From assembly GCF_016026235.1 (NCBI RefSeq), contig NZ_CP065613.1: a DNA stretch of 64,000 bases; one strand, written 5' to 3'. The DNA comes from Escherichia coli (lineage in GTDB: Bacteria > Pseudomonadota > Gammaproteobacteria > Enterobacterales > Enterobacteriaceae). The notes under the pieces were generated by a model. It made no database searches. It saw only the letters and a list, made by a program, of their open reading frames with translations, and was not told where the DNA came from. The translations under genes were made by a program, and so were the position numbers. Positions 20,675 to 60,042 of this stretch are shown one piece after another (the first letter of the stretch is position 1; each line of letters starts with the position of its first letter).

Positions 20675-20725
20675 AATCCAAATGTTAAATTTTATATCCG
20701 CATGATTTGTCAGGGAAATGGAATT

Positions 20726-42508: not shown

Positions 42509-43222
42509 ATGATTAAAAATTTGCCGCAAATAGTGTTGTTGAATATTGTTGGCCTCGCGCTGTTTCTTTCCTGGTATATTCCCGTTAATCATGGATTCTG
42601 GTTGCCGATTGATGCGGATATTTTTTATTTCTTTAATCAGAAACTGGTCGAAAGTAAGGCCTTTTTGTGGCTGGTTGCATTGACCAACAATCGCGCTTTC
42701 GACGGTTGTTCTCTGCTGGCGATGGGAATGTTGATGCTGAGTTTCTGGCTAAAAGAAAACGCCCATGGCAGACGACGTATCGTGATTATTGGTCTGGTCA
42801 TGCTATTAACTGCAGTGGTATTAAACCAGCTGGGTCAGGCATTAATTCCTGTAAAACGGGCCAGCCCAACATTGACTTTTACCGATATTAACCGCGTCAG
42901 CGAACTGCTCTCTGTCCCCACGAAAGATGCCTCACGAGATAGCTTTCCCGGCGATCACGGCATGATGCTGCTTATTTTTTCGGCATTCATGTGGCGTTAT
43001 TTCGGCAAAGTTGCAGGTCTTATCGCCCTTATTATTTTTGTGGTTTTTGCGTTTCCCAGAGTAATGATTGGCGCACACTGGTTTACTGACATCATTGTCG
43101 GTTCGATGACCGTGATATTGATCGGTTTGCCCTGGGTGTTGCTGACGCCATTAAGTGATCGATTAATCACCTTTTTTGACAAATCACTACCGGGAAAAAA
43201 CAAACATTTCCAAAACAAATAA
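42509..43222 (+). CDS. lpxT: Lipid A 1-diphosphate synthase / undecaprenyl-pyrophosphate phosphotransferase (PAP2 family)
   Basis: ORF 42473..43222; conserved start MIKNLPQIVLLNIVGLALF at ATG 42509; PAP2 motifs (PGDHG, ...HWFTD). Confidence 0.9.
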   Translation: MIKNLPQIVLLNIVGLALFLSWYIPVNHGFWLPIDADIFYFFNQKLVESKAFLWLVALTNNRAFDGCSLLAMGMLMLSFWLKENAHGRRRIVIIGLVMLLTAVVLNQLGQALIPVKRASPTLTFTDINRVSELLSVPTKDASRDSFPGDHGMMLLIFSAFMWRYFGKVAGLIALIIFVVFAFPRVMIGAHWFTDIIVGSMTVILIGLPWVLLTPLSDRLITFFDKSLPGKNKHFQNK

Positions 43223-57602: not shown

Positions 57603-57783
57603 GATAAACTCTCCTTTAAGACCGGGCGGTATTCAACCACCGCCGGTTAAGCGACGCAATAAAAGATGGCGGTCATTTTACAGAAGGCAGCGTAACGAGA
57701 ATGATTTAACGCATAAAAAAGCAGAAAAAAAACCGTTGCTACGGTAATATGTTGCCCTTTCATCAACTAACTGATTTCGATTT

Positions 57784-58011
57784 ATGCCACAAATTTCCCG
57801 CTACAGTGATGAACAGGTTGAACAATTGCTCGCAGAGCTGCTCAACGTACTGGAAAAACATAAGGCTCCGACCGACCTTTCCCTGATGGTGTTAGGCAAC
57901 ATGGTCACTAACCTTATCAACACCAGCATTGCCCCGGCCCAACGCCAGGCAATTGCCAACTCTTTTGCCCGCGCCTTACAGTCCTCTATCAACGAAGACA
58001 AAGCGCACTAA
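57784..58011 (+). CDS. yejL: YejL, UPF0352 small protein
   Basis: 75-aa [44 protein letters not shown]... Confidence 0.9.
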
Positions 58012-58030: not shown

Positions 58031-59791
58031 ATGGTAACTCATCGTCAGCGCTACCGTGAAAAAGTCTCCCAAATGGTCAGTTGGGGGCACTGGTTTGCAC
58101 TGTTCAATATTCTGCTTTCGCTCGTCATTGGCAGCCGTTACCTGTTTATCGCCGACTGGCCGACCACGCTTGCTGGTCGCATTTATTCCTACGTAAGCAT
58201 TATCGGCCATTTCAGCTTCCTGGTGTTCGCCACCTATTTGCTGATCCTCTTCCCGCTGACCTTTATCGTCGGCTCCCAGAGGCTGATGAGGTTTTTGTCC
58301 GTCATTCTGGCAACGGCGGGAATGACGCTATTACTGATCGATAGCGAAGTCTTTACTCGTTTCCATCTCCATCTTAATCCCATCGTCTGGCAACTGGTTA
58401 TCAACCCAGACGAAAATGAGATGGCGCGCGACTGGCAGCTGATGTTCATCAGCGTGCCGGTTATTTTATTGCTTGAACTGGTGTTTGCGACGTGGAGCTG
58501 GCAAAAGCTGCGCAGCCTGACGCGTCGTCGACGCTTCGCGCGCCCGCTGGCCGCATTCTTATTTATCGCCTTTATCGCCTCGCATGTGGTGTATATCTGG
58601 GCCGATGCCAACTTCTATCGCCCGATCACCATGCAGCGCGCTAACCTGCCGCTTTCGTACCCGATGACGGCGCGACGTTTTCTTGAGAAGCATGGCCTGC
58701 TTGATGCGCAGGAATATCAACGCCGTCTTATTGAGCAAGGTAATCCAGACGCCGTTTCCGTTCAGTATCCGTTAAGCGAACTGCGCTATCGCGATATGGG
58801 CACTGGGCAGAATGTGCTGTTGATTACTGTCGATGGCCTGAACTACTCACGCTTCGAGAAGCAGATGCCTGCGCTGGCAGGTTTTGCTGAGCAAAATATT
58901 TCGTTCACGCGCCATATGAGCTCCGGCAACACTACAGACAACGGCATCTTTGGCCTGTTCTATGGCATCTCGCCGAGCTATATGGACGGCATTCTGTCGA
59001 CCCGTACGCCTGCGGCATTAATTACTGCGCTTAATCAGCAAGGCTATCAGCTGGGGTTATTCTCATCAGATGGCTTTACCAGCCCGCTGTATCGCCAGGC
59101 ATTGTTGTCAGATTTCTCGATGCCGAGCGTACGCACCCAATCCGACGAGCAGACCGCCACGCAGTGGATCAACTGGCTGGGACGCTACGCACAAGAAGAT
59201 AACCGCTGGTTCTCGTGGGTTTCTTTCAATGGTACTAACATTGACGACAGCAATCAGCAGGCATTTGCGCGGAAATATAGCCGGGCGGCAGGCAATGTCG
59301 ATGACCAGATCTACCGCGTGCTCAATGCACTGCGTGATTCTGGCAAACTGGACAATACGGTGGTGATTATCACTGCCGGTCGGGGTATTCCACTGAGCGA
59401 AGAGGAAGAAACCTTTGACTGGTCCCACGGTCATCTGCAGGTGCCATTAGTGATTCACTGGCCAGGCACGCCGGCGCAGCGTATTAATGCTCTGACTGAT
59501 CATACCGATCTGATGACGACGCTGATGCAACGCCTGCTACATGTCAGCACACCTGCCAGCGAATATTCGCAAGGTCAGGATTTGTTCAACCCTCAACGCC
59601 GTCATTACTGGGTTACCGCAGCGGATAACGATACGCTGGCAATTACCACCCCGAAAAAGACGCTGGTGCTGAACAATAACGGTAAATACCGCACTTACAA
59701 CTTACGTGGTGAAAGAGTGAAAGATGAAAAACCACAGTTAAGTTTGTTATTGCAAGTACTGACAGATGAGAAGCGTTTTATCGCTAACTGA
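58031..59791 (+). CDS. yejM: Inner-membrane LPS/cardiolipin homeostasis protein YejM (PbgA/LapC), sulfatase-like periplasmic domain
   Basis: 586-aa ORF with five N-terminal TM helices and an alkaline-phosphatase-superfamily domain. Confidence 0.9.
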   Translation: MVTHRQRYREKVSQMVSWGHWFALFNILLSLVIGSRYLFIADWPTTLAGRIYSYVSIIGHFSFLVFATYLLILFPLTFIVGSQRLMRFLSVILATAGMTLLLIDSEVFTRFHLHLNPIVWQLVINPDENEMARDWQLMFISVPVILLLELVFATWSWQKLRSLTRRRRFARPLAAFLFIAFIASHVVYIWADANFYRPITMQRANLPLSYPMTARRFLEKHGLLDAQEYQRRLIEQGNPDAVSVQYPLSELRYRDMGTGQNVLLITVDGLNYSRFEKQMPALAGFAEQNISFTRHMSSGNTTDNGIFGLFYGISPSYMDGILSTRTPAALITALNQQGYQLGLFSSDGFTSPLYRQALLSDFSMPSVRTQSDEQTATQWINWLGRYAQEDNRWFSWVSFNGTNIDDSNQQAFARKYSRAAGNVDDQIYRVLNALRDSGKLDNTVVIITAGRGIPLSEEEETFDWSHGHLQVPLVIHWPGTPAQRINALTDHTDLMTTLMQRLLHVSTPASEYSQGQDLFNPQRRHYWVTAADNDTLAITTPKKTLVLNNNGKYRTYNLRGERVKDEKPQLSLLLQVLTDEKRFIAN

Positions 59792-59812
59792 TTAATTATA
59801 AATCAGTTAGCG
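59782..59812 (+). other. Perfect 12-bp stem-loop spanning the yejM stop codon
   Basis: cgctaactgatt-aattata-aatcagttagcg; the TGA stop (59789-59791) lies in the 5' arm; no U tract follows. Confidence 0.5.
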
Positions 59813-59865
59813 AAATATCTTACTTGCAATCGGTGTGGAAAACGGTAGTATTAGCAGCCACGAGT

Positions 59866-59942
59866 CGGCACGTAGCGCAGCCTGGTAGCGCACCGTCATG
59901 GGGTGTCGGGGGTCGGAGGTTCAAATCCTCTCGTGCCGACCA
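59866..59942 (+). tRNA. proL: tRNA-Pro (anticodon GGG)
   Basis: 77-nt CGGCACGTAGCGCAGCCTGGTAGCGCACCGTCATGGGGTGTCGGGGGTCGGAGGTTCAAATCCTCTCGTGCCGACCA with cloverleaf-compatible stems, GGG anticodon and encoded CCA end. Confidence 0.9.
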
Positions 59943-59955
59943 AAAATCCCAAAAA

Positions 59956-59981
59956 AACCAACCGTAAAGGTTGGTTTTTTT
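59956..59981 (+). terminator. Rho-independent terminator of proL
   Basis: aaccaacc-gtaaa-ggttggtt followed by a T7 run. Confidence 0.8.
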
Positions 59982-60042
59982 ATATCTGCATTTAATTCGA
60001 TAAACAGACCGCGACACATCACGGCCTGTTTATTGTCTGTTA

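Follow-up and report, generated by a model that had tools for sequence, protein, structure and literature searches.

A palindrome over the yejM stop codon as a probable upstream protein-binding element, and candidate Fis site, of the proL promoter in Enterobacterales

Overview

The palindrome that covers the end of the yejM gene in Escherichia coli is probably, by a modest degree of confidence, a dyad-symmetric upstream element of the proL promoter, bound by a protein and overlapping the last part of yejM, and a site for Fis is its most likely candidate identity. The position of the dyad is fixed relative to the -35 hexamer of proL, its conserved footprint extends over both arms and the centre, and its invariant bases are the determinants of Fis binding. 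An ordinary activator site of the Fis type appears most likely, rather than a special RNA device. According to the proposed mechanism, a Fis dimer would bind and bend the dyad DNA in fast-growing cells, and this binding would stimulate proL transcription in the manner of rrnB P1, tyrT, and leuV. In Enterobacteriaceae, where the symmetry extends over 11-13 bp, a yejLM transcript that reaches the dyad could also fold into a stem-loop without a U tract (-18 kcal/mol), which might, in a subordinate role at the 3' end of the yejLM mRNA, act as a barrier.

Locus and structure of the palindrome

The window (the whole 64-kb stretch of E. coli DNA that was analysed) contains at 59782-59812 the palindrome cgctaactgatt-aattata-aatcagttagcg. 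A sequence-only reading of this DNA had described a perfect 12-bp palindrome with the yejM TGA inside it, and the sequence is indeed as described; pairing reaches one further pair (T59781:A59813), which gives a perfect 13-bp stem with a 7-nt loop and T59797 as the centre of symmetry. In MG1655 (U00096.3) the palindrome corresponds to 2286126-2286158, centred on 2286142. The distance to the tRNA-Pro gene, previously put at 55 bp, was close to the 53 nt measured from the right arm to the tRNA. The last yejM codons, ATC GCT AAC TGA, form the left arm, and because the spacer between yejM and proL is only 74 nt long, the site overlaps the last three codons of yejM together with its stop codon. The features of the junction are collected in Table 1.

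Table 1. Features of the yejM-proL junction, in positions of the window
Feature	Position	Strand	Remarks
yejM (pbgA/lapC) CDS	58031..59791	+	586 aa; protein 100% identical to E. coli YejM
Perfect palindrome	59781..59813		arms 59781-59793 and 59801-59813 (13 bp each), A/T centre 59794-59800 (7 bp)
yejM stop codon TGA	59789..59791	+	in the left arm; its G is core position -7
17-bp core T-G-ATTAATTATAAAT-C-A	59789..59805		candidate Fis dimer site
Non-conserved spacer, dyad to -35	59814..59823		about 0-0.4 bit per position, 84 loci
proL -35 hexamer TTGCAA	59824..59829	+	27 bp from dyad centre (26 bp in most genera); conserved block
proL -10 hexamer TAGTAT	59846..59851	+	conserved as TAnnAT; 16-bp spacer to -35
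proL transcription start sites	59859..59860	+	primer extension (PMC5291269), carried over to window coordinates
proL, tRNA-Pro(GGG)	59866..59942	+	ARAGORN
proL intrinsic terminator	59951..59981		13-bp stem between A7 and T7; faces convergent yejO

As RNA, the palindrome segment folds at -18.1 kcal/mol (z = -5.65, none of 200 shuffles being as good), and as DNA at -13.1 kcal/mol (z = -7.5); the stem still forms when a context of 166 nt is folded. Two perfect stems of at least 13 bp were seen in the window versus 0.01 expected from first-order Markov simulations, the second being the terminator of proL, and the window holds no further perfect stem of at least 10 bp, terminator-like stems aside.

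A stable hairpin with a stop codon inside it might be read as the intrinsic terminator of yejLM, or as a recoding or termination-coupled signal that acts on the UGA, and either role appears scarcely credible here. The stem is A/U-rich (5 of 13 pairs are G:C), its 3' flank, AAATATCTTACTT (also given as AAAUAUCUUACUU), contains no U tract and is unconserved, being C-rich in other genera, and a terminator scan found no site at the palindrome. The sequence-only reading had already called an intrinsic terminator unlikely, and the genuine terminator of the locus is the one that follows proL. As for recoding, the yejM stop is TGA, TAA, or TAG among relatives and shifts by 4 to 24 nt relative to the core, the frame of any read-through product is broken by a 4-nt indel, and the loop shows no SECIS-like features. 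Coupling of the structure to translation termination, another earlier suggestion, is unsupported because the stop codon lies inside the core, 4 nt before it, or 19-24 nt before it, depending on the lineage.

Several other identities were considered and rejected. No known RNA family fits, as a search with the Rfam covariance models yielded only an overlapping mir-983 match of 22.6 bits against a gathering score of 100, which is meaningless. A REP/BIME repeat was dismissed since there is one locus per genome and no dispersed family. A divergent minus-strand promoter could be composed of the loop, which there reads TATAAT, and the self-complementary TTGCAA, but its spacer would be 23 bp. Finally, pairing between the right arm and the yejL 5' leader, which are complementary over 11 nt in Escherichia, is not conserved elsewhere.

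Conservation of the dyad in E. coli and other Enterobacterales

Of 5426 complete E. coli genomes, 5425 match the region 59650-59990 of the window at 97-100% identity, and the matching genomes are annotated there with the 3' end of yejM followed by a tRNA-Pro. The palindrome is present in the same number of these genomes (5425/5426) as a single copy, the two places reported per genome by BLAST being the two strands of one locus. A 43-mer around it occurs as two E. coli haplotypes that differ only at 59812, where exact matches carry G in 2684 genomes and A in 2693, so that the 12th pair is C:G or C.A at about 50:50; the remainder of the 43-mer is invariant in about 99% of the genomes.

For a broader comparison, a YejM search of species-representative genomes provided 80 Enterobacteriaceae loci, and proL begins about 75 nt past yejM wherever the tRNA start could be located (the tRNA pattern was unmatched in 3 loci). 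Ten more distant junctions were added, from Sodalis, Biostraticola, Acerihabitans, Serratia (three), Chania, Gibbsiella, and Yersinia (two), and the final set comprised 84 non-redundant yejM-proL junctions of Enterobacterales anchored on the centre of symmetry. YejM homologues at 41-43% identity had no tRNA downstream. The dyad is conserved in other enterobacteria; a lack of conservation in relatives was among the grounds for refutation named in the sequence-only reading.

Two arrangements were found. In form A (Escherichia, Citrobacter, Salmonella, Enterobacter, Lelliottia, and Leclercia) the TGA lies inside the core, and in form B (Klebsiella, Raoultella, Kosakonia, Kluyvera, and others, as well as the Sodalis/Serratia outgroups) the stop codon is 4 nt further from it. 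The distance from the dyad centre to the first T of the -35 hexamer is 25 bp in 17 loci, 26 bp in 59, and 27 bp in 8 (n=84), whereas the separation of the centre from the yejM stop codon is 8 nt in 39 loci, 12 in 40, 11 in one, 13 in two, and 27 and 32 in one each. Since the former distance is nearly fixed and the latter varies, the dyad is positioned by the proL promoter and not by the end of yejM.

Over the 84 loci, a block of high information content spans about -13 to +14 relative to the centre; the values drop to about zero between +15 and +24 and recover at the -35 hexamer. The central "loop" positions -3, -2, -1, 0, and +2 carry 1.2-1.9 bits, and the most invariant positions are T-8, G-7, T-5, T-4, T+2, A+5, C+7, A+8, and T+10. 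The combination T, G, C, A at -8, -7, +7, and +8 occurs in 79 of 84 loci; G at -7 together with C at +7 was found in 83 of 84, T-8 is shared by 83 and A+8 by 81 of the 84, and at least 12 of the 13 positions between the core G and C are A/T in 72/84. In the Enterobacter clade, T is replaced by C at +6, a non-critical position for Fis. The Yersinia junctions are particularly informative: in Y. enterocolitica and Y. nurmii the hairpin potential is gone and the stop codon is 19-24 nt away, and the cores (cGGTTAAAAAAACAGCa and tGATTAATTATTAAGCg, respectively) are kept, with a spacing to the -35 hexamer of exactly 26 bp. The Y. nurmii junction has, in non-coding sequence, CTAACTGATTAATTAT, which repeats the E. 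coli left arm and centre without a change.

The extended symmetry could in principle be functionless, if template switching in a quasi-palindrome copied the coding-constrained left arm onto a free right flank beside a short functional core, which we judge to be improbable. E. coli is known to undergo quasi-palindrome correction as a mutational process, the conserved C-terminus of YejM (..RFIAN*) fixes the left arm, and the right arm tracks the left one through both the 4-nt indel and the synonymous ATC/ATT changes. In addition, no selection is visible at the end of the stem because the pair at +-15 is C:G or C.A in about equal proportions in E. coli. However, the conservation of +10, +12, and +13 at 82-99% across family-level divergence, next to random sequence from +15 to +24, would hardly arise without selection, and the lack of other perfect stems of at least 10 bp in the window, terminator-like ones aside, also speaks against a purely mutational origin.

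Fis determinants and the proL promoter

Fis sites have been reported to contain a 15-bp A/T-rich core with G at -7 and C at +7, T/A being favoured at +-8 and G at -8 being harmful, with backbone contacts to about +-13 (PMC4784862, PMC9104697, PMC3064808). In addition, about 80% of the half-sites of well-characterised Fis sites contain a Y-R step at +-(3-4) (PMC4784862). In the yejM-proL dyad, G59790 and C59804 occupy -7 and +7, all 13 positions between them are A/T, and T59789 and A59805 lie at -8 and +8, so no G is found directly 5' of the core. One half-site has the Y-R step T-4/A-3; the other reads A+3/A+4, with the nearest TA step at +2/+3. The G-W13-C motif occurs only 4 times in the 64-kb window. 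The proL locus is unmentioned in the Salmonella Fis ChIP tables.

On the promoter side, proL has been reported to be monocistronic, northern blots and more than 350 cDNA clones having revealed no longer precursors, and the -35 and -10 hexamers are consistent with the mapped start sites (Mohanty et al., PMC5291269). These starts lie 7 and 6 nt before the mature 5' end of the tRNA, and relative to them the dyad is centred at -62/-63 in E. coli and at about -61.5 in most genera. The start is 8-9 nt past the -10 hexamer, and such an interval together with a 16-bp spacer is characteristic of promoters for rRNA and tRNA. The classical Fis site I is centred at -71; the dyad centre is roughly one helical turn nearer, but 1-2 bp off this register in E. 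coli. A network derived from RegulonDB assigned proK and proL, among other tRNA operons, to a module described by its authors as linked by the global regulator fis (2004, PMC544888), although proK has no comparable dyad at the equivalent place. Overall, the earlier proposal that the dyad binds a protein in the region of the proL promoter is the one best supported, by the anchoring to the -35 hexamer, the Fis motif, and the persistence of the core in Yersinia without the hairpin.

Fis does not account for everything. It leaves unexplained the base-specific conservation at +-10, +-12, and +-13 and the concerted changes of the arms at +-6, +-9, +-11, and +-15, and the symmetry over 11-13 bp, beyond the 17-bp core, is not explained by Fis alone. 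One could suppose that the dyad is instead the operator of another regulator that binds as a dimer, covers about 27 bp, has a half-site of about CTRAYTGATT, and serves proL or the end of yejLM; this seems unlikely. The conservation at +-10, +-12, and +-13, which exceeds what a Fis site would impose, and the sharp edges of the conserved block near -13 and +14 agree with this idea, as does an exact copy of the half-site, CTAACTGATT, in the Escherichia yejL leader. However, that copy is not conserved outside Escherichia, and the dyad is unique in the genome. Moreover, a fixed protein specificity is disfavoured because the outer arms differ between lineages, being GCTAAC/GTTAGC in form A, ACTGATTGATT/AATCAATCAGT in Klebsiella, and AATTAACTGCTT/AAGCAGTCAATT in Sodalis. 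To our knowledge, no E. coli regulator motif fits, those of FNR, CRP, Cra, DeoR, ArgR, Fur, LexA, IHF, and Lrp appearing wrong in spacing or orientation.

Pairing potential in the yejLM transcript

There is a minor but real possibility that the dyad acts mainly as RNA, the yejLM mRNA then carrying at its 3' end a U-less stem-loop that would stop 3'-5' exonucleases or contribute to ending transcription ahead of the proL promoter; the dyad would in this case resemble the protective stem-loops that end Rho-dependent transcripts. U-less stem-loops of this kind are a described class, known from the ends of many mRNAs in E. coli (Dar and Sorek 2018, PMC6061677). Because proL is monocistronic and has no longer precursors (PMC5291269), transcription of yejLM must stop ahead of proL or seldom reach that far. 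Over 76 Enterobacteriaceae junctions the stem has a median of -13.8 kcal/mol, 58 of them being at or below -10 kcal/mol, and the share of stem cells able to pair is 92% for form A and 79% for form B together with the outgroups, as compared with 12-44% when the partners are slid. Changes on both sides of a pair were also observed, from A:T to C:G at +-6 (Sodalis/Serratia) and between C:G and T:A at +-9, A:T and G:C at +-11, and C:G and T:A at +-15, and G.U pairs occur as well.

On the other hand, several observations argue against RNA as the main function. In the portion of the Term-seq tables of Adams et al. 2021 covered here (PMC7815308), no + strand 3' end is listed at about 2286158, the base of the stem; the nearest + strand ends in that portion are 2284559, inside yejM and with a low score, and 2286287, the 3' end of proL, with none between them (PMC7815308). 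The option of an mRNA 3'-end stabiliser, raised in the sequence-only reading, has therefore found no support in the Term-seq entries covered. In the Sodalis/Serratia group the hairpin reaches only a weak -3.5 to -13.6 kcal/mol, and in Yersinia it is lost, although the core and its spacing to the -35 hexamer are kept. Even the loop sequence is conserved, and a sequence serving purely as a loop would not be expected to show such conservation. There is also no strand asymmetry, since A.C mismatches are as common as G.U, and terminating ribosomes would unfold the stem because its left arm is translated. Finally, two-sided change is limited to just 1 of 13 pairs in form A and 4 of 13 in form B, so that the pairing signal is mostly plain sequence conservation, and the true covariation is modest.

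A more speculative combination, which we hold to be very improbable, is that the dyad has a dual use as a DNA/RNA switch, in which the duplex held by Fis alternates with a cruciform or melted state and a stem-loop over the yejM stop codon acts in the mRNA. Under negative supercoiling, the A/T-centred palindrome could melt or form a cruciform, and the Fis-held duplex would, by analogy, pass superhelical stress on to the -10 region of proL. Structural transmission of this kind has been reported for leuV. On the RNA side, the stem-loop would link how much of a minor tRNA-Pro is made with the end of an essential gene of LPS homeostasis, and the concerted arm changes that Fis cannot explain would be the trace of a pairing requirement.

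Significance

Upstream sites of the Fis type at tRNA promoters are textbook material, and the only unusual points of the present case are the overlap with the stop codon of an essential gene and the long symmetry. If the Fis assignment is true, it places a probable site for a promoter whose link to Fis is already contained in the RegulonDB-derived network, and in this respect adds little. It would also provide a clean example of a promoter-upstream element that lies over the last codons and the stop codon of an essential gene, in which case the C-terminus of YejM (..IAN*) and the regulatory site constrain each other because the element overlaps the end of yejM. For genome scans, the case suggests some caution, as a perfect hairpin over a stop codon can signal a symmetric DNA-binding site and not an RNA device.

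Comparison with known systems

Among known hairpins at gene ends, intrinsic terminators share the position of the yejM-end palindrome, which differs from them in its A/U-rich stem without a U tract. REP/BIME elements are likewise palindromes by a stop codon that could protect mRNA, whereas the yejM-end palindrome is single-copy, is not GC-rich, and overlaps the coding sequence. The resemblance to the U-less protective 3' stem-loops (Dar and Sorek 2018) is closer, given that the yejM-end stem-loop is stable, has no U tract, and lies in the energy range of terminators. It differs from them in that no steady-state 3' end is mapped at the base of its stem in the Term-seq entries covered, half of its stem is translated, its loop and promoter spacing are conserved, and it is lost in Yersinia.

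The closest likeness is to the Fis upstream activating sites of rrnB P1 (site I), tyrT, leuV, and thrU-tufB. As in these systems, the proL dyad is located just upstream of a tRNA promoter of rRNA-like architecture, contains a G/C-bounded 15-bp A/T-rich core with T/A at +-8, and occupies a fixed position from the -35 hexamer, and proL itself belongs to a fis-linked network module. The candidate site at proL differs in being centred near -62 and not -71, in being single and not part of an array, and in overlapping the coding end of the upstream gene inside an unusually long perfect palindrome.

Repeats around the yejM-proL hairpin

Around the perfect hairpin across the yejM stop codon lies another inverted repeat (TTGCAAGTA / TACTTGCAA), which encloses it; the -35 hexamer of proL (the tRNA-Pro(GGG) gene) falls within this outer repeat. 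Structure prediction indicated that the arms of this repeat would pair in read-through RNA. The outer repeat is 8 bp long in K-12, and junction comparison showed the spacer that forms it to be Escherichia-specific. An exact copy of the left arm of the hairpin (CTAACTGATTT) was also observed in the yejL 5' leader, giving an 11-nt complementarity to 59800-59810. Across the genera compared, the full 10-mer of this copy occurs in Escherichia only; just ACTGATT or ACAGATT is retained before the yejL start codon in the others.

Strings of the Fis-core-like type carried by the hairpin core (G, 13 A/T and C; G-W13-C) were found at only three other places in the whole 64-kb window. At the imperfect repeat near yejO (ATAAACAGACCGCGA / TCACGGCCTGTTTAT), no T run was present.

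Features of the window and of the proK comparison locus
Feature	Position	Remarks
Left-arm copy CTAACTGATTT	57767-57777	yejL 5' leader, 7 nt upstream of yejL ATG at 57784
Outer inverted repeat TTGCAAGTA / TACTTGCAA	59750-59758 and 59821-59829	encloses hairpin
proL terminator	59951-59981	13-bp perfect stem, A7 and T7 at its flanks
Imperfect 15-nt inverted repeat ATAAACAGACCGCGA / TCACGGCCTGTTTAT	60000-60033	just 3' of minus-strand yejO stop codon
G-W13-C string	2763-2777	
G-W13-C string	20684-20698	
G-W13-C string	42617-42631	
eptB-proK junction	L098 (E. coli SK1144) 100-330	

Transcript ends and the proL 3' side

In the published Term-seq tables (Adams et al. 2021, PMC7815308), an RNA 3' end of low level is recorded within yejM, 183 nt into the gene, at U00096.3 2284559 (approximately window 58214); this end is scored there as not Rho-dependent.

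The proL terminator faces the convergent yejO gene and has a bidirectional appearance owing to its A and T flanks; its loop and stem vary among E. coli strains. In E. coli FDAARGOS_943 (L005, about 595-895), similarity to the window stops at the proL 3' end, and a phage-type integrase pseudogene follows. On this sequence comparison, proL is evidently used as a genomic-island integration site in some strains.

Comparison with the eptB-proK locus

proK lies directly 3' of eptB, which encodes a sulfatase-fold LPS enzyme, as proL does of yejM. A dyad at the position equivalent to that of proL is absent from the eptB-proK junction, where only an A/T-rich, UP-like stretch is found. The eptB reading frame ends in GCT AAC TAA (..A N *), similar to the GCT AAC TGA of yejM, and the likeness of the two loci may stem from an ancient duplication in which a sulfatase-family gene and a tRNA-Pro gene were copied together as one segment.
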